64,000 bases of DNA from an uncultured Candidatus Saccharibacteria bacterium. Lineage in GTDB: Bacteria; Patescibacteriota; Minisyncoccia; Phycocordibacterales; UBA9973. The notes beneath the pieces are model-generated. The model made no database searches. It saw only the letters and a list, made by a program, of their open reading frames with translations, and was not told the origin of the DNA. Each line of letters starts with the position of its first letter. The stretch's first letter is position 1. The translations under genes were made by a program, and so were the position numbers. The DNA is taken from NCBI GenBank assembly GCA_964450735.1, contig CAYVDC010000002.1, positions 703-64,702 on the forward strand, read 5' to 3'. Below, one piece after another: positions 15,372 through 56,823 of this stretch.

Positions 15372-15839
15372 ATGGAAAAAGAGCTCAGCTGGTCAGCATT
15401 TGAATACAAACAAAAAGTCCATACCGTAGACTGGTATTGGACCGTCGGCCTTATTACCGTCGTAGTTGTCGTGGCTTGTATTTTCTTCAAAAATTATCTC
15501 TTCGCCTTTTTGCTACTTATGGGCATCGGTACCCTCACCTACCTTTCGTTCAGAGCGCCAGAAGAAGTCAGCATTGTCATCGATGATAAAGGCATTCGCG
15601 TGCGCAACAACCTGTTTACGTACCGAAACCTCAAAGGATTCTGGATCGAGGAAGAAGCGCAAGAAAATGGCGATCGACACTTGCTTATACTTACTTCTCG
15701 CACCTACTCACCGCTTCTAGCTCTTCCGCTCGGAGATGTAGCCCCAGAAACAATCCGACAAGCACTGCTGCCGCATCTCAAAGAGCAGGAAATGCATGAA
15801 AGCGTTTCGCATAAGTTTCTAGAGATCCTTGGGTTTTGA
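15372..15839 (+). CDS. Hypothetical membrane protein
   Basis: 155 aa with an N-terminal double TM helix and a soluble C-terminal domain. Confidence 0.4.
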   Translation: MEKELSWSAFEYKQKVHTVDWYWTVGLITVVVVVACIFFKNYLFAFLLLMGIGTLTYLSFRAPEEVSIVIDDKGIRVRNNLFTYRNLKGFWIEEEAQENGDRHLLILTSRTYSPLLALPLGDVAPETIRQALLPHLKEQEMHESVSHKFLEILGF

Positions 15840-15928
15840 CTTGCCGATAGGCAAGTCCCGCGCGCGGCGTGGTACATAAAAATTCAGTGACAAGGCGCGT
15901 GCAGCCACTAAGTGTAAGGATAACTAAC
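15838..15928 (+). repeat. Copy 1 of a three-copy dispersed structured element
   Basis: The first hairpin is gacttgcc-gata-ggcaagtc. It is followed by ccgcgcgcggcgtggtac, the spacer aaaaattc, the second helix partner ggcgcg, and the invariant tail tgcagccactaagtgtaaggataact. Compare 43649-43738 and 51138-51226. Confidence 0.6.
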
Positions 15929-15949
15929 ATATAAACCAAACAATTCACC

Positions 15950-16084
15950 ATGGAGGAAGAAAAAGAAATCATCTGCCCAAAGTGCAAGATTCCAATGGAA
16001 AATGGCGTTTGTCCTGTCTGCGATATGCGAGCAATCGATATCGAAGACGAGGATGAATACAACGACCGAAGAGAGCGAAGATAG
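15950..16084 (+). CDS. Small zinc-ribbon peptide (44 aa) with an acidic tail
   Basis: ATG..TAG ORF giving MEEEKEIICPKCKIPMENGVCPVCDMRAIDIEDEDEYNDRRERR, with CxxC-x8-CxxC. A terminator follows. Confidence 0.35.
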   Translation: MEEEKEIICPKCKIPMENGVCPVCDMRAIDIEDEDEYNDRRERR

Positions 16085-16088
16085 AAAA

Positions 16089-21160: not shown

Positions 21161-21823
21161 TTATGCTCGTGCGTTTCGAGTAAGAGCGAATCCACCAGCG
21201 AGGACAATTGCTCCGGCAAGAGCCAAGAGGGCCATTGTTGCAGGGGCAGTTGCACCTGCACCGGTATTTGGCAATGTTGGAACTGTTGGAGTTGTTACAA
21301 CAGAGCCCAAAGCCAAGCTACATGCGAATCCAGTTGTTGTGCTGAAACCAGTAGTTGATGTACAACCAGGGTAAAGCGTGTATGCTCCCCAAGGAGTAGT
21401 GCTGCTTACAGTGCTACATGCAATACCGCTTGTGCTGCTGTAACCGAAGTTTGATGAACAACCATATGGATATGAAACAATACCAGCTGAACTAAGTCCG
21501 GTTGCACCATTACATGGCGCGCCTGTTATTGTGCTAAATCCATTTGTACTTGTACATCCGTATGGAAATGCAAGTCCTCCGTTTGAGGCCAATGTTGATC
21601 CGTTACAAGGCATACCTGTCTGTGAGTTGAATCCTGCAGTTGATGAACAACCGAGTGGGATGCTTGTTGAACCATTACAAGATGCTCCAGTTGTTGTGCT
21701 GTATCCTGCGCTTGATGAACATCCCGCAGGATAAACAGATTGTGCATTTGCTTGCTGCGCTCCAATAAATCCGATACCTGCAACGAGAGCAATTGCGACG
21801 ATGAATGTATAAAGTTTTTTCAT
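21161..21823 (-). CDS. LPNTG-anchored cell-surface protein with five ~22-aa Cys-pair repeats (sortase substrate)
   Basis: Signal peptide, then five repeats of YPxGC(S/T)SxxG(F/Y)SxxTGxxCNG. The C-terminal sorting signal is LPNTGAG, followed by a hydrophobic segment and RNARA. The gene is immediately upstream of the sortase gene on the same strand. Confidence 0.7.
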   Translation of the reverse strand: MKKLYTFIVAIALVAGIGFIGAQQANAQSVYPAGCSSSAGYSTTTGASCNGSTSIPLGCSSTAGFNSQTGMPCNGSTLASNGGLAFPYGCTSTNGFSTITGAPCNGATGLSSAGIVSYPYGCSSNFGYSSTSGIACSTVSSTTPWGAYTLYPGCTSTTGFSTTTGFACSLALGSVVTTPTVPTLPNTGAGATAPATMALLALAGAIVLAGGFALTRNARA

Positions 21824-43272: not shown

Positions 43273-43527
43273 CTATTTTGTGAGTCGAGCGAGGCGTGCG
43301 TTCTTGCGGGCTGCTGTGTTCTTCTTGATAACACCTTTCTTTGCTGCCTTGTCGATTGCTGCCTGAGCTTTTGAGAGAAGCTTCTTTGCTTCCGCGAGGC
43401 TCTTTGCTTTGACGAGCTTTTCAATCTCTTTGATTGAATCCTTCATTGTCTTCTTTCGGCGATCGTTAACTGCCTTTTTCTTCGCGCTTCCGCGGAGGGC
43501 CTTTTTTGCTGATGCTGTGATTGGCAT
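43273..43527 (-). CDS. rpsT: 30S ribosomal protein S20
   Basis: 84 aa, Lys/Ala-rich, starting MPITASAKKALRGSAKKKAVNDRRKK. Confidence 0.9.
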   Translation of the reverse strand: MPITASAKKALRGSAKKKAVNDRRKKTMKDSIKEIEKLVKAKSLAEAKKLLSKAQAAIDKAAKKGVIKKNTAARKNARLARLTK

Positions 43528-43648
43528 GAGATTATTTTTTCTTACTTACTAATGATAAATAAATATTGGAGTATATATTTGTACCGCGTACGAGACACGT
43601 ACTTAGGTACTAGCACTATACCAGAAAAGCTATATATTGCAAGGCTGG

Positions 43649-43738
43649 GGACTGGCTGGTAAGCCAGTCACCGCGACCCGCGTGATACATTAAATTTCCA
43701 AGACCAGGGTCGTGCAGCCACAAAGTGTAGGAACAACT
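43649..43738 (+). repeat. Copy 2 of the dispersed structured element
   Basis: The first hairpin is gactggct-ggta-agccagtc. It is followed by ccgcgacccgcgtgatac, the spacer aaatttcc, the second helix partner gggtc, and the tail cgtgcagccacaaagtgtaggaacaactg. Confidence 0.6.
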
Positions 43739-43753
43739 GGAATAAATACTTCT

Positions 43754-44030
43754 GGGAGAGCGCACCAGCAGTAGTTTCCTGACTTGCTCACGCTGCGTCA
43801 GGAGAACTACTGCTTCGCGCCCTGTGCATCTCATCACCGTACTCATTGGCAATCACCACCCTTTACCGTAAGGGTGGTGATTGAAATACTAATGGCTTAT
43901 AGATGTTCAGGGCGCGAAGTCTCATGCTGCCGAAAGGGCGTTACGGAGCGCGACGGCGCGAGTACCAGCCGAAAATCCCTCAGGATTTTACGGCGTGTCC
44001 TTTCGGCAGCATGAGGCGTAGCGCTCTCCC
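43754..44030. ncRNA. Candidate structured RNA (~277 nt) of unknown class between rpsT and ruvA
   Basis: Terminal helix gggagagcgc/gcgctctccc. Inside it lie hairpin gcagtagtt..aactactgc, a 12-bp helix cttcgcgccctg/cagggcgcgaag enclosing hairpin atcaccaccctt-taccg-taagggtggtgat, and a 17-bp helix ctcatgctgccgaaagg/cctttcggcagcatgag enclosing two small hairpins. Confidence 0.45.
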
Positions 44031-44073
44031 AAAACCCTAATCCAGTTACCCTTTGCCATGATATACTATTCCC

Positions 44074-44643
44074 ATGATCGGCTATATTGAAGGCACTATC
44101 CGCCTCGTGACAGACAAATACGTACTCGTGAGCACTGGCGGCATTGGCTATAAAGTTTTTGGGACCCAGGAACTTTTGGCTAAGCTAAATGGCCAGACGA
44201 ACTGTTCCCTTTTTACGCACCTTGCTGTTCGAGAAGACGCCCTCGATCTCTACGGATTTGAAAACGAATCCGAACTTTCTCTTTTTGAACTTCTCATCAC
44301 TGTTTCCGGCATCGGCCCGCGCGGTGCTTTGAATGTGCTTTCGATCGCAAGCATCGAAACATTGGAACAAGCGATTGCTACCGGAGACACCGGCTACCTG
44401 ACAAAAGTCTCCGGCATCGGACGCAAAACCGCAGAAAAAATTGTTCTTGAACTCCGCGACAAGATGCAGGCTCGAACAAATGGCGAAACCAAGAAAGATC
44501 TTCGCGGCGAATCCGATGCAGTACTTGCTCTCCAGTCACTTGGTTACTCACAAAGCGAATCTCGCGAAGCGCTCAAGCAAATTGATCCAAACCTTACGAC
44601 AAACCAAAAGATCAAAGAGGCGCTCAAATTTTTAGGAAAATAG
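44074..44643 (+). CDS. ruvA: Holliday junction branch-migration protein RuvA
   Basis: The start MIGYIEGTI is the RuvA N-terminus. An HhH pair (GIGPRGALNVL ... VSGIGRKTAEKI) and a C-terminal domain III are present. Confidence 0.9.
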   Translation: MIGYIEGTIRLVTDKYVLVSTGGIGYKVFGTQELLAKLNGQTNCSLFTHLAVREDALDLYGFENESELSLFELLITVSGIGPRGALNVLSIASIETLEQAIATGDTGYLTKVSGIGRKTAEKIVLELRDKMQARTNGETKKDLRGESDAVLALQSLGYSQSESREALKQIDPNLTTNQKIKEALKFLGK

Positions 44644-49353: not shown

Positions 49354-49515
49354 AAATGAACCAGTATGTTACGACATACTGGTTTTATTATAAACCCATA
49401 CAAATTACTCGGGATACGGGATCTCCGCTACTGCGGCAGGTGCTTTTCCACCTCGCTTCGCTCGTACGGAAAAGCCTTTCGATCCCTTACGCGAGCCAAG
49501 CAGTTGGCTCGCTCC

Positions 49516-49572
49516 GTGGTGCACACAATACAAAAGGCCGCCGGCTTAGCCGGCGGCCTTTTGTATTGTGTG
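49516..49572. terminator. 27-bp perfect palindrome abutting the 3' end of tRNA-Lys
   Basis: gtgcacacaatacaaaaggccgccggc-tta-gccggcggccttttgtattgtgtgcac. Confidence 0.7.
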
Positions 49573-49643
49573 CACCCGGAAGGGATCGAACCTTCGACCA
49601 TTTGCTTAAGAGGCAACTGCTCTACCAGCTGAGCTACGGGTGC
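49571..49643 (-). tRNA. tRNA-Lys (anticodon CUU)
   Basis: Reverse-complement fold. The acceptor stem is gcacccg/cgggtgc, the D-arm is gctc-agctggta-gagc, and the anticodon stem gttgc/gcaaa (one G.A mismatch) carries the loop ctCTTaa. The T-arm is gaagg-ttcgatc-ccttc and the discriminator is A. Confidence 0.85.
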
Positions 49644-51083: not shown

Positions 51084-51138
51084 AAGAGCCTCGAGCATGC
51101 AACCATACGTTGGTTTCATACTCGAGGCTCTTTTTTTA
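51084..51138 (+). terminator. Compound terminator
   Basis: aagagcctcgag ... ctcgaggctctttttttatt, with an inner hairpin aacca-tacg-ttggtt. A GC hairpin aacgccggctcgc-aaa-gcgagccggcgtt sits upstream at 50875-50903. Confidence 0.65.
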
Positions 51139-51226
51139 TTTCGCGAAAGCGAAATACCGCGCCCAGCGTGGTACTACTAAAATTCCCACACCAGGGGCGT
51201 GCAGCCACAAAGTGTAGGAACAACTG
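51138..51226 (+). repeat. Copy 3 of the dispersed structured element
   Basis: The first hairpin is atttcgc-gaaa-gcgaaat. It is followed by ccgcgcccagcgtggtac, the spacer aaaattcc, the second helix partner gggcg, and the tail cgtgcagccacaaagtgtaggaacaactg. Confidence 0.6.
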
Positions 51227-51249
51227 AAATCATGTTTCAGAACTTGTAT

Positions 51250-51903
51250 TTAGATAACTTTCAATATAAACCTCTCCAATTCCTCCTCAATATCAAACAG
51301 TCCATTGTGCGCTCCATGAACGATGCGGACCAATTCTCGTGACGCGTTCTCGAGCTCACCTTTTTTCCAAGCGGAGAGTCTGTTTTTGGTAAACATATTT
51401 TTTACTGCCCAGAACAAAACCCCGATGATTGCTTCTGGCGCCTGTTCATGAAAAATGGCCTCGCGGTACAAGAGCCATGTCCCCTTTTTATCTTTTGCCG
51501 AGAAAGCATCAGTTAGCGCAAAAATATTGAATTCTTTTTTCTTTGCTTCTTTGGGTTCATCGCAGAGAATTATTTGCGCGCCGGATTTTTCAAGCGACTT
51601 CACGATGTCTTTAGTCAGCTCGCGCTCCATGATAAAGATGGTATTTGATGACTCCGCAAGGCGAGGTGCAAAGTCCAAGAGTATTTCGCCGAATGATTCA
51701 TTTAGAAATGGGTATTCAAATGCTAGCGAAAGAGTGTCATCGAATAACGACGAGCCGCCTGAAATTTGTTCGAGCTCAGCGATTGATGATTCACTCGCTG
51801 ATTTAGAAATAACATCAGCATTCTCTATGCCAAGTTTTTTCAACAGCTGGTCGCGCGCTTCGTGACGCTTCTCTGCGCTTGTTCCATAGATAAGGTACAG
51901 CAT
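51250..51903 (-). CDS. holA: DNA polymerase III delta subunit-like protein (short HolA)
   Basis: MLYLIYGTS is a HolA-like N-terminus. It lies in the same strand block as polA. At 217 aa it is shorter than a typical HolA. Confidence 0.5.
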   Translation of the reverse strand: MLYLIYGTSAEKRHEARDQLLKKLGIENADVISKSASESSIAELEQISGGSSLFDDTLSLAFEYPFLNESFGEILLDFAPRLAESSNTIFIMERELTKDIVKSLEKSGAQIILCDEPKEAKKKEFNIFALTDAFSAKDKKGTWLLYREAIFHEQAPEAIIGVLFWAVKNMFTKNRLSAWKKGELENASRELVRIVHGAHNGLFDIEEELERFILKVI

Positions 51904-54845: not shown

Positions 54846-54887
54846 CTACTAATAAAAAAGCAGTTTTTAAAAACTGCTTTTTGAAAA

Positions 54888-55316
54888 TTACCATTCCCAA
54901 TCTCTTTCAGGAATATCTTCTCCTTTTTTACCACATTTTATGCAGACAGGAATTTCAGATAGCTGCCCCGATGAACAACCAGAGGTTACTGAAATTACTT
55001 CGTGCAAAACCAGGTGTAATCCTCCTTTTTCACAACACTGCCGAAGCTGCAGCACACCATCTTTAATAAGCTTCTTTAGTTCACGCGTAGGTATACACCG
55101 GGATCTTCCTACTTCCTTAACCCAAATCGTTGTTCTCCATGACTCTTGTGTAAACGAAGTTGCAACAATTTCATCTCCTTTTAAAACAGAGATAGGGAGT
55201 GAAGCAATAGTACTACAAAAAGCAGGAACGGGGTCTTGATGGTGTACTTCAGGAAATGAAAAGGATTGTAAAACCAAATAGTAGTTTTTTGTTTCGAGTG
55301 GTTTTTTTGTGTTCAT
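54888..55316 (-). CDS. Hypothetical protein with a C-terminal CxxC zinc-ribbon, immediately upstream of polA
   Basis: 142-aa ORF with CIKCGKKGE near the C-terminus and no other recognisable motif. Confidence 0.35.
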   Translation of the reverse strand: MNTKKPLETKNYYLVLQSFSFPEVHHQDPVPAFCSTIASLPISVLKGDEIVATSFTQESWRTTIWVKEVGRSRCIPTRELKKLIKDGVLQLRQCCEKGGLHLVLHEVISVTSGCSSGQLSEIPVCIKCGKKGEDIPERDWEW

Positions 55317-55612
55317 AAAAAGTAGTTTTAGTTATTGTATTTTTAAGGTACAAAAATACCGGCAATCTCGCCGGTTACAATGATCTCGATATGAGAGTAA
55401 AAGCTATATATTGAAACACACAAAACCGGCACGATATGTATCGTTTGCGCGCCAGCTATTCGTCTGTATGTTCATATATTTCATAACTACGTATATACTA
55501 GCAAACTAGTACAGAAAAGTCAAGCTCGCTACTAGTCCGTGTGGAAAAGTATATCTAACACAAAAGCCGGCATTTGTGCCGGCTTTTGTGGTGAGGATGT
55601 AGTTACGTACAG

Positions 55613-56152
55613 TTAGTTGGTTGTAGTGAAGCTTGCAACATCACTAAATCCATGAGCATTTGCAGGGTGAGAGTTAGGACCATAGTTCGCTACAGCTCTA
55701 AAGTAATATGTTGTATGCGGCTGCAATCCAGAGATTGGAATGCTGAGGGTCCCCTGAGTAGGGCCGTTGATCGCCGAAGTTGAACTGAGGTTTGTTGGAG
55801 ATGTTCCATATTCAAAATATGAAGTCTGGCCTTGCGCAGCGCCATTATATTTGTCCATCAACCCCAAGATTGTTGCATTGAGCGTTGCAGAAGTAGAAGA
55901 AATATTGGTTGCCGCGTTTACAGTAAAGATAGGCGCTGGCATACCAGTAGAACTTGGTACTGTCGGGGTTGGTGAAACAGCCGGATTCTGAGATACATTT
56001 GTAGGTTTTGTATCTGCTGTTGTCTGTTCATTTTTTACTTCTGCAGTCGGCACGCCAGGCGCAGCTACATCAGACTTTGAATACCATACAAAATAACCAG
56101 CCATTGCCACGATAACGAGAATCAAAATTCCTATCACGATATTCTTATTCAT
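55613..56152 (-). CDS. Membrane-anchored protein with an FN3-like domain
   Basis: N-terminal TM helix, a Pro/Thr linker, then a ~90-aa domain ending TTYYFRAVANYG (FN3-like). It resembles a segment of the 793-aa neighbour. Confidence 0.45.
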   Translation of the reverse strand: MNKNIVIGILILVIVAMAGYFVWYSKSDVAAPGVPTAEVKNEQTTADTKPTNVSQNPAVSPTPTVPSSTGMPAPIFTVNAATNISSTSATLNATILGLMDKYNGAAQGQTSYFEYGTSPTNLSSTSAINGPTQGTLSIPISGLQPHTTYYFRAVANYGPNSHPANAHGFSDVASFTTTN

Positions 56153-56249
56153 ATAAATCTCATTTACTATTATAAAATCGAGCTCCAATAACTATATCAC
56201 TTAGGCGATATATAAGTATAGACGGATGAGCAGGTCTTTTCTTACAAGA

Positions 56250-56687
56250 TTATTTTAACGTAATTTCCCGCTTCGTCTCGCTCTTGTGTTTCAACGAAAT
56301 AGTAATATGCTTCTTAGGCAGCAATTTCCCCATCTGTTCAGGCCACTCCAAAAAGATCACATTGCCAGGATCAGTTACCAATGTATCCCAGCCAATCCGA
56401 TTGGACTCCTCGGGCTTTTCAAATCGATACGCATCAATGTGATGAAATAGCCTCCATTCCTTTTTAGAAAGTTTGTAGCTTTTGAGCAGCACGAATGTCG
56501 GACTGATCACTTTATCTTTAATTCCAAGAATCTTGGCAATCTCTTTCGTTACCGTCGTCTTCCCTGCCCCCAAATCACCCGACAATGCGACGATGGTCGC
56601 CCCATCACTATTCTTGTGCTTCACAATGTATTGAATGACCAACTCAGCGATCGCTGGAATATCGTTTTCAGTAAAGACTTTTTTCAT
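56250..56687 (-). CDS. tsaE: tRNA threonylcarbamoyladenosine biosynthesis protein TsaE
   Basis: P-loop ALSGDLGAGKTTVTK, the SPTFVL motif and the HIDAYR(F) motif are all present in a protein of about 146 aa. I trimmed the start to MKKVF. Confidence 0.85.
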   Translation of the reverse strand: MKKVFTENDIPAIAELVIQYIVKHKNSDGATIVALSGDLGAGKTTVTKEIAKILGIKDKVISPTFVLLKSYKLSKKEWRLFHHIDAYRFEKPEESNRIGWDTLVTDPGNVIFLEWPEQMGKLLPKKHITISLKHKSETKREITLK

Positions 56688-56823
56688 AAGATTAGAATAC
56701 CACAAAGCTCCAAGCAATGTCTCGTGTAGCTTTGGCCGAGGACCCTCGCCTTCAGGAAGCTGGTTGCTGGCGAATCCGCAGGCCAAAGCTACACGAGACA
56801 TTGCTTGGAGCGGTACTAAAACA

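Follow-up and report, generated by a model that had tools for sequence, protein, structure and literature searches.

A nested palindromic fold between rpsT and ruvA of a Patescibacteria genome and its possible place in a dispersed intergenic repeat

The rpsT-ruvA spacer and its fold

In a 64-kb stretch of contig CAYVDC010000002.1 from an uncultured member of the Patescibacteria (this whole stretch is called the window below), the genes rpsT (43273-43527, - strand) and ruvA (44074-44643, + strand), both of which are confirmed by Pfam, are separated by a gap of 546 nt (43528-44073). The subject of the present analysis is a 277-nt segment of this gap, 43754-44030, which is predicted to fold into a nested palindrome, and the sequence that accompanies it. 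The analysis covers the 64 kb of this genome and loci of about 8 kb from relatives, designated by L numbers. The exact RuvA protein of the window has no database record, but its homologues assign the organism to the Patescibacteria/Paceibacterota, and the rpsT-ruvA order is syntenic in relatives.

The fold is a real observation and far beyond chance. On the + strand the 277 nt have an RNA minimum free energy (MFE) of -169.2 kcal/mol compared with a mean of -91.5 (standard deviation 5.3) for shuffled sequences (z = -14.6, none of 200 shuffles being as stable), the - strand reaches -161.1 kcal/mol (z = -12.7), and folding of 43735-44047 with DNA parameters gives -101 kcal/mol (z = -12.8). Among 911 tiled 277-nt segments over the 64 kb it furthermore ranks first in stability, with -160 kcal/mol compared with a mean of -66 (standard deviation 13), and its GC content of 0.56 exceeds that of the whole window (0.43) and of the remaining rpsT-ruvA spacer (0.32). 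A first-pass annotation, made from the letters alone, had described a strong nested structure here, and all the helices that it named are indeed found at their positions (Table 1). An additional 7-bp outer helix, P0, joins the 3' end of the preceding dispersed element, copy 2 of what is called module A below, to the 3' flank of the fold. The same annotation could assign the structure to no known class of RNA, which agrees with our searches, since Rfam 15 at gathering thresholds returned only two tRNAs from the whole window and the Rfam scan that it had proposed, run on 43500-44100, found no family above threshold. In E-value mode, likewise, 43500-44100, 51120-51260 and L135:1900-2300 gave only noise from miRNA-precursor hairpins and snoRNAs, at 11-22 bits compared with thresholds of 36-80.

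The gap had also been noted as unusually long. Its length is accounted for by a 413-nt insertion, since the orthologous spacer measures 131-134 nt in L001-L004 and L105-L112 and 113 nt in L146, all with flanks that align to the window, and since in blastn comparisons of the L105, L107, L108 and L109 loci the alignment to the window ends at 43645 and restarts at 44059 with one base between. The empty site reads TTGCAAGGCG / TGATATACT, and the 413 nt of the window replace a single base. Copy 2 and the fold were gained or lost together within this one block and are linked by base pairing between the 3' end of copy 2 and the sequence that flanks the fold on its 3' side, which bears out the earlier suggestion that copy 2 is part of the structured element. 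The genomes with the short spacer (L001-L004, L105-L112) share only about 75-85% nucleotide identity with the window and are therefore sister species and not strains. RuvA of the window is reported to be 98% identical to that of the same loci (P0001) at the protein level, but the DNA that contains ruvA is only about 76-82% identical, as is the case elsewhere in the locus. Saturation of synonymous sites, with purifying selection being strong, would account for this mismatch.

The inserted block sits exactly between two back-to-back core promoters. The -35 element of rpsT, TTGCAA (43637-43642, -), is kept in the spacers of all relatives and the insertion begins 3 nt upstream of it, and the extended -10 of ruvA is found as TGATATACT or TGGTATACT right after the variable segment in L001-L007. 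A consensus scan of both strands of 43646-44058 revealed no promoter-like or terminator-like site, although the promoters of this phylum may deviate from consensus, and all promoter and terminator calls given here are consensus matches only. Outside the insertion, the 5' leader of rpsT (about 43573-43610, transcribed from the - strand) holds a nested hairpin, TACCGCGTACGAGACACGTACTTAGGTA, which is kept in every relative examined, has no Rfam match and may be an S20 autoregulatory leader.

Table 1. Positions in the window of the inserted block, its modules and helices, further module A copies and flanking promoter-like sites
Feature	Position	Strand	Remarks
Whole inserted unit, modules A and B, 413 nt	43646-44058	+	blastn against sister-species loci
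rpsT promoter-like site	43615-43642	-	TTGCAA-16-TATAGT with TG; consensus scan
ruvA extended -10, TGATATACT	44059-44067	+	directly 3' of the insertion; promoter role inferred from sequence
Module A, copy 2	43651-43743	+	covariance model R1, 102.7 bits, E = 2e-24
Module A, copy 1 (solo)	15839-15930	+	abuts stop codon of upstream + strand gene; R1, 103.9 bits
Module A, copy 3 (solo)	51138-51230	+	directly after terminator of DsbB gene; R1, 103 bits
Module A, helix P1	43650-43669	+	GACTGGCT / AGCCAGTC, GGTA loop
Module A, long-range helix P2, 7 bp	43672-43714	+	CGCGACC (43672-43678) with GGTCGTG (43708-43714)
Module A, tail CAGCCACAAAGTGTAGGAACAACTGGAAT	43715-43743	+	last bases form 5' strand of outer helix P0
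Module B with imperfect terminal inverted repeats	43735-44047	+	AACTGGAATA... / ...TAATCCAGTT, forming outer helix P0
Outer helix P0, 7 bp	43735-43741 / 44041-44047	+	AACTGGA / TCCAGTT
Four-way junction, 277 nt	43754-44030	+	closing helix and three long arms
Closing helix	43754-43763 / 44021-44030	+	GGGAGAGCGC / GCGCTCTCCC
Arm 1 hairpin	43767-43814	+	inverted repeat and fold
Arm 2	43813-43919	+	12-bp basal helix, internal loops, 14-bp apical hairpin
12-bp helix	43813-43824 / 43908-43919	+	CTTCGCGCCCTG / CAGGGCGCGAAG; base of arm 2
14-bp perfect apical hairpin of arm 2	43850-43883	+	loop TTTACCGTAAG
Arm 3	43919-44017	+	19-21-bp basal helix around conserved core and small hairpin
17-bp perfect helix inside arm 3	43921-43937 / 43999-44015	+
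25-nt block TTACGGAGCGCGACGGCGCGAGTAC	43941-43965	+	identical in window and L135, 25/25 nt

Two modules and their occurrence in relatives

Module A, the dispersed element of about 92 nt in the 5' part of the inserted block, is present in three copies in the window, all on the + strand. A genome scan with CGTGCAGCCACWAAGTGT, using one genome per species, returned 15 true and 6 chance loci, and in pattern and model searches the true copies were confined to the window and three related Paceibacterota metagenome-assembled genomes (MAGs; DALYCO01, CAZHJZ01 and CAZHUT01). The total is 19 distinct copies, 18 of which are in the alignment, the 19th (L116:3637-3730) having been recovered by the covariance model. 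This model, R1, recovers the copies at 86-108 bits, with no further match in the window, and does not detect divergent A-like variants in L005, L009 and L119, whose kinship to module A was judged by inspection only. In L005 (2819-3000) and L119 (about 1745-1800) the variant has a hairpin, its loop being GAAA or GGTA, and after it GNNCCGAGCCGCRTGASAC, and could be a motif that is sister to module A.

In module A both P1 and P2 covary. Across the 18 aligned copies all five core pairs of P1 covary with 100% of cells paired, and the loops are GNNA-like (GGUA, GAUA, GCUA, GAAA), and in P2 (CGCGnnn / nnnCGUG) two pairs covary (CG, GC, AU) and one G-U pair is invariant in 18/18 copies. Seven pairs covary in total, and 99.2% of the cells of the whole structure are paired compared with 84% in shuffles, none of 500 of which was as high, and with 27-44% in slid controls. 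The tail CAGCCACAAAGTGTAGGAACAACTGGAAT is invariant across the 18 copies, partly by construction, since the block served as search pattern, and GTAG occurs in only some of the tails (GTGTAGG, but also GTAAG, GTGGG and GTTGG). By counts that rest on simple open reading frame (ORF) calls, about 14 of the 18 copies are co-oriented with the upstream gene, often abutting its stop codon or lying 0-6 nt past the U-tract of its terminator, and two are followed by an intrinsic terminator of their own, that is, they are found between stop codon and terminator (L125/L135 after ftsZ; L130). In solo copies the bases of the P0 strand form a small terminal hairpin (CTGAAA-tcatg-TTTCAG in copy 3), and since the 5' strand of P0 is thus both the end of module A and part of a hairpin in solo A, module B looks like cargo within A's terminal hairpin. 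A function of module A as promoter was also considered, as the conserved TGGTACATT resembles an extended -10, but was rejected, key -10 positions being lost in about half of the copies. Directly downstream of copy 1 there is a small ORF of about 44 aa (15951-16085, +) with two CxxC motifs, reminiscent of a zinc ribbon, and then a bidirectional terminator.

Module B, the nested palindrome itself, is bounded by terminal inverted repeats (43735-43744 and 44038-44047) that are 90% complementary, with consensus GGTWAACTGGAWTA, and equivalent ends are found in L135 (GTTAATTGGAATA / TATTCCAGATAAC), L105a and L006. In all, three full copies and four short forms were collected, and a metagenome scan with the arm-2 pattern returned solely a copy identical to L105a. 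Relative to the window, arm 1 of L135 differs at several positions, each change being mirrored on the opposite strand of the helix. All three full copies share the TTACSGTAA loop and, on the 3' side of arm 2, GATTGRAAWACWWATGGC. The 25-nt block of arm 3 resembles, by inspection only, the module A core CGCGACCCGCGTGGTAC. ORFs of 78, 76 and 45 aa inside the element were ruled out as protein-coding in view of the frequent indels and of changes relative to L135 that are mirrored on the other side of the helices.

The two modules occur in varying combinations and at different sites in different species. The nearest homologue of the window's module B (L135:1932-2250, MAG CAZHJZ, 72% identity) lies past the stop codon of priA and ahead of the rpsU promoter, and the same site in L137 and L138-140 holds only 43-59 nt and no B. 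At the DsbB-holA site the window has A only, L122 (CAZHUT) has A and a short B, and L105, L106, L107 and L134 have a full B, which was recovered identical from five independent assemblies and combines other arm sequences with the same four-way architecture (z = -9.0) and an apparent remnant of A ahead of it. Upstream of tsaE, L105 carries A and a short B and the window instead a 31-bp perfect hairpin with a 43-nt loop (56707-56811, -), situated between the terminator of the upstream gene and the extended -10 of tsaE, in which no sequence similarity to module B was found. At the rpsT-ruvA site itself, L005 has the A-like variant, L006 and L007 a short B, and L009 an A-like element together with unrelated sequence. 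Three contigs from three runs of one further relative (L141, L142 and L143; RuvA identity 86%) all end 71 nt upstream of ruvA, in sequence that resembles the right end of module B (AAACCCTCAATAC, positions 1-71), which suggests an assembly break induced by the repeat or hairpin.

Taken over all loci, A is found alone (window copies 1 and 3), with B (window copy 2), with a short B (L105b, L122) and with A' and a short B (L119), and B is also found alone (L135, L105a, L006). Copies of B adjoin unrelated genes (rpsU, holA, tsaE) or sit between convergent genes, and within a genome they share segments of 82-88% identity (L105a/L105b; L006/L119/L122). This modular and species-variable occurrence fits a repeat that moves or is exchanged among permissive intergenic sites and not a gene fixed at one locus. 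The proposal of the first-pass annotation that the spacer encodes a discrete functional intergenic RNA is not upheld, since the block is missing from orthologous spacers (L001-L004, L146), is strand-symmetric as shown below and has family members at differing loci, and the fold is most likely not a conserved rpsT-ruvA RNA.

Structured RNA or palindromic DNA

An RNA gene is expected to fold better, and with more G-U pairs, on its expressed strand, and neither is the case for module B. Over 43735-44047 the folding energy is -177.9 kcal/mol for the + strand, which forms 111 Watson-Crick and 5 G-U pairs, and -176.1 kcal/mol for the - strand, which forms 112 and 6, and seven other copies of the family show the same symmetry and no bias towards the + strand. 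Compensatory changes, which are likewise expected of an RNA gene, are on the other hand abundant both in module A and in module B relative to L125. In comparison with L125/L135, 93% of the cells of arms 2 and 3 are paired and 17 pairs have changed on both sides (none of 500 shuffles reached this and slid controls gave about 40%), and in the 21-bp helix of arm 3 alone 12 pairs have changed on both sides and none is broken. Since pairing in arms 2 and 3 is kept across doubly changed pairs, the fold is evidently maintained, but hairpin-templated DNA processes yield the same signal. Template switching at quasipalindromes perfects inverted repeats by copying a change of one arm into the other (PMC7202029), and apparently compensatory changes can for that reason arise without selection on RNA. 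The pattern of conserved loops and variable stems, which we do not use to argue for RNA, holds in places, namely at 43941-43965 and on the 3' side of arm 2, but not overall, since paired and unpaired columns of B are equally conserved (64% and 60% identity, p = 0.59). Counts of 1x1 A-C mismatches from MFE folds are biased and were not relied on.

We conclude that the 277-nt fold is best explained as module B of a lineage-specific, modular, dispersed palindromic intergenic repeat of a small Patescibacteria (Paceibacterota-type) clade, a reading to which we give a probability of roughly one half. The modules occupy permissive intergenic positions, close behind a stop codon or terminator and directly ahead of the core promoter that follows, and vary by species at each site. 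Module B would be a non-autonomous palindromic DNA element akin to MITEs (miniature inverted-repeat transposable elements), BOX elements and bacterial interspersed mosaic elements (BIMEs), and may spread or be exchanged among sites in trans, either with the help of a transposase or through recombination or template switching at the hairpins. The stems, nearly perfect in their Watson-Crick pairing, could be kept by processes that depend on the hairpin, that is, by recognition of folded single-stranded DNA or by correction of the quasipalindrome through template switching, and strand-specific selection on RNA is apparently not involved in their upkeep. At rpsT-ruvA the element would have landed in the gap of about 4 nt between the two core promoters, and since both of these were left intact the insertion is probably neutral or mildly regulatory, tolerated and not required. 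Copies in 3' untranslated regions (UTRs) would be co-transcribed and could serve as stable 3' structures in the manner of BOX and repetitive extragenic palindromic (REP) sequences.

Several observations nonetheless weigh against this explanation. Neither Pfam searches of 40 ORFs of the window nor the gene calls of the related loci revealed a transposase, integrase or reverse-transcriptase domain, and no autonomous parent element is known. Furthermore there is no target-site duplication at the one clean comparison of an empty (GCAAGGC-G-TGATATAC) with a filled site (GCAAGGC-(413 nt)-TGATATAC), which contains no direct repeat, and the flanks of the B-alone copies in L135 and L105a likewise show no clear duplication. 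The number of B copies is low, one full copy in 64 kb as compared with three of module A, and those within a genome are only 82-88% identical, so that recent transposition is not demonstrated. In addition, the blocks that are far more conserved than the adjacent stems (43941-43965 in 25/25 nt; the 3' side of arm 2 in three full copies) suggest a sequence-specific function, and the invariant G-U pair, the co-orientation and the placement of module A at stop codons and terminators point to a strand-specific role, at least of this module, at the RNA level. It is finally conceivable that the empty sites reflect differential loss from an ancestor with copies at all of these sites.

The elements could also constitute a new family of structured non-coding RNA, with A as its conserved core and B as a variable peripheral extension from A's terminal hairpin. 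The + strand would then be transcribed, either from a promoter that escaped recognition or by read-through of the upstream gene, and the RNA could stabilise 3' UTRs, signal processing, bind a protein or be a ribozyme. This notion is in agreement with the covariation of P1 and P2 without broken pairs, the G-U pair invariant in 18/18 copies and the GNNA-like loops of P1, with the co-orientation of about 14/18 A copies with the upstream gene, several abutting its stop codon and two then followed by their own terminator, and with the finding that two species at least (the window and L122), and L105 possibly in the form of a remnant, have retained A at the orthologous DsbB-holA site. The 17 doubly compensated pairs of B relative to L125 (93% of cells paired, 0/500 shuffles), the conserved 25-nt block and arm-2 motifs, and the high GC content in an AT-rich genome, which is a classic signature for finding structured RNAs, are likewise what such a family would show. 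However, B is symmetric between strands in folding energy and G-U content, its paired and unpaired columns are equally conserved (64% and 60%, p = 0.59), and perfect helices 14-21 bp long are not what functional RNAs typically have and would serve RNase III as substrates. The unit is moreover missing from orthologous sites in sister species, it lies here upstream of both core promoters without a promoter or terminator of its own, and many A copies follow directly on a terminator U-tract, leaving no room for a promoter. We consider an RNA family of this kind, for which module A offers the strongest evidence, rather unlikely, although it is the main alternative.

Similarly doubtful, if worth stating, is the proposal that A and B together are structured nucleic acids of a class not described before and confined to a Paceibacterota clade. 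A core of about 92 nt, made up of P1, P2 and the invariant tail, would sit at gene 3' ends and have its terminal hairpin expanded to a four-way junction of about 300 nt with the conserved loop motifs TTACGGAGCGCGACGGCGCGAGTAC, GATTGRAAWACWWATGGC and TTACSGTAA, and the element would, as RNA or as folded single-stranded DNA, recruit a specific protein, which could be a processing or stability factor or a recombinase.

Recognition as folded single-stranded DNA by an HUH-type enzyme or a recombinase, the element then being derived from IS200/IS605, similar to REP sequences with their RAYT transposases, attC-like or origin-like, would explain the perfectly compensated stems, the conserved TTAC motifs in loops and bulges (TTACCGTAA, TTACGGAG), the equal folding of both strands together with the highly significant DNA-parameter fold, and the presence/absence variation among species. 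The missing target-site duplication also fits, since none is expected of an IS200/IS605-type insertion. A gene for a Y1/HUH transposase, an integrase or Rep was however found neither in the window nor among the gene calls of related loci, the left flanks share no evident target tetranucleotide, there are no GTAG-tagged REP units of 20-40 bp, and the phage, plasmid and viral collections gave no match, neither in blastn against phage and plasmid collections nor for the A and B patterns in viral contigs. The pattern GGAGAGCGC-N(35-65)-CTTCGCGCC did give 93 matches in viral contigs, all of them by chance in contigs averaging 63% GC. Such a site is in our view improbable.

A leader that regulates ruvA or rpsT in cis, such as a riboswitch, a ribosomal-protein leader or an attenuator, and an assembly or amplification artefact can both be essentially excluded. 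The former is brought to mind by the position of the block between the two genes, its co-orientation with ruvA and a weak + strand promoter-like site (43552-43579) that could in principle read through, but the block lies upstream of the ruvA extended -10 and the rpsT -35, is missing from L001-L004, L105-L112 and L146, including species with RuvA reported as 98% identical, has homologous B copies beside unrelated genes (rpsU, holA, tsaE) or between convergent genes, and matches no leader or riboswitch in Rfam. An inverted-repeat chimera would account for nested perfect palindromes, which multiple displacement amplification or assemblers can create, and for the contigs of one relative that break inside the element, but the same architecture is found in independent NCBI, JGI, ENA and Logan assemblies, with differences that are compensated.

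Kinship to known elements, further features of the window and implications

MITE-like modular repeats, among them pneumococcal BOX elements (67-637 bp) and REP/BIME clusters, are intergenic, form long stem-loops and can be transcribed (PMC3184786), and the A/B repeat shares part of its features with each of them. As in the BOX elements of Streptococcus pneumoniae (boxA-boxB(n)-boxC) the modules are noncoding, variable in number and kind and separable in varied combinations, and they have partly complementary ends and a long stem-loop; BOX elements furthermore require no classic target-site duplication and are transcribed with neighbouring genes (PMC3184786). A/B differs in having no sequence similarity to BOX, a long-range helix and a three-arm palindrome, an apparently much lower copy number, a streamlined Patescibacteria genome as host and no known mobilising insertion sequence. 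With REP, BIME and REPIN sequences it has in common that these are GC-rich extragenic palindromes found mostly past gene ends and form mosaic clusters of hairpins with conserved linkers. They can also make upstream mRNA more stable, and mobilisation in trans is assumed for them (PMC3184786, PMC3116915, PMC3733652). REP units are however 20-40 bp long, carry a GTAG or CGTC tag, number in the hundreds and have a RAYT gene alongside, whereas the stems of A/B are 14-31 bp, those of B lying inside a 313-nt unit, without a consistent tag, the copies are few, and no gene for RAYT (a Y1 transposase) is found in the 64-kb window.

MITEs such as Correia (CREE), ERIC, RUP and Nezha resemble A/B in their length of 100-400 bp, their terminal inverted repeats, which module B also has, and their long hairpins, and also in being intergenic, often beside promoters, and present or absent between related genomes (PMC3184786). 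Similar copies at unrelated loci together with empty orthologous sites, a further property of MITEs, are seen here at the ruvA, rpsU, holA and tsaE sites. A/B departs from these MITEs in its short, imperfect ends without detected target duplication, its branched four-way junction and its copies of only 82-88% identity. In attC sites and IS200/IS605 ends, structure is conserved and stem sequence varies, and no target duplication is made, all of which recurs in A/B, but attC and IS608 ends are strand-specific, whereas both strands fold equally here, and A/B is much larger, branched and without a nearby integrase or TnpA. Of the large structured RNAs, raiA, OLE, ROOL and GOLLD are likewise GC-rich islands in AT-rich genomes with multi-helix junctions, very negative z-scores and compensatory changes. 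These are however found at defined loci across genera and are represented in Rfam, and their helices are irregular, contain G-U pairs and show strand asymmetry, whereas A/B matches none of the Rfam families, is absent from orthologous sites and is strand-symmetric.

The repeat has terminal inverted repeats, modular combinations, presence/absence at orthologous sites, placement after gene ends and long stem-loops, and lacks target duplication, short GTAG-tagged units, high copy number and a known transposase. Since some defining features are thus present and others not, we regard it as a BOX/BIME/MITE-like variant without assigning it to one of the named families. No description of this element was found in the literature on structured RNAs or palindromic repeats in Patescibacteria.

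Three further regions of the window deserve mention. Downstream of tRNA-Lys(CTT) (49570-49643, -) there is a very long inverted repeat (49440-49643, -) around a bidirectional terminator, which holds the 3' end of the tRNA and an inverted copy of it (49478-49496 with 49572-49590; 49503-49546 with 49548-49591), and whose 381-nt fold (-170 kcal/mol, z = -12) is the second most stable region of the window. About 1.4 kb between polA and tsaE (54847-56250) are missing from the sister species L105 and contain two ORFs, one of 142 aa (54888-55316, -) with no Pfam match and one of 191 aa (55613-56188, -) with only a weak, sub-threshold, fibronectin-like match. Five direct repeats at 21329-21724, spaced by about 96 nt and 62-79% identical, lie inside an ORF (21161-21823, -) that has no Pfam match and probably encodes a repetitive surface protein.

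The small, streamlined genomes of Patescibacteria are usually said to have few repeats and little non-coding RNA. The A/B family would mark recent genome dynamics in this group, and it gives rise to breaks in assemblies, three of which, all from one relative, end inside the element. It may also modulate adjacent promoters or mRNA 3' ends. It also calls for caution in RNA discovery, as an extreme z-score, high GC content and abundant compensatory changes can stem from DNA palindromes too. If on the other hand the RNA reading were true, this would above all make module A a new, small structured RNA motif whose covariation is clean, and if A and B were indeed a previously undescribed class, this would be a mobile, self-propagating structured element in genomes that are thought to be almost free of repeats.

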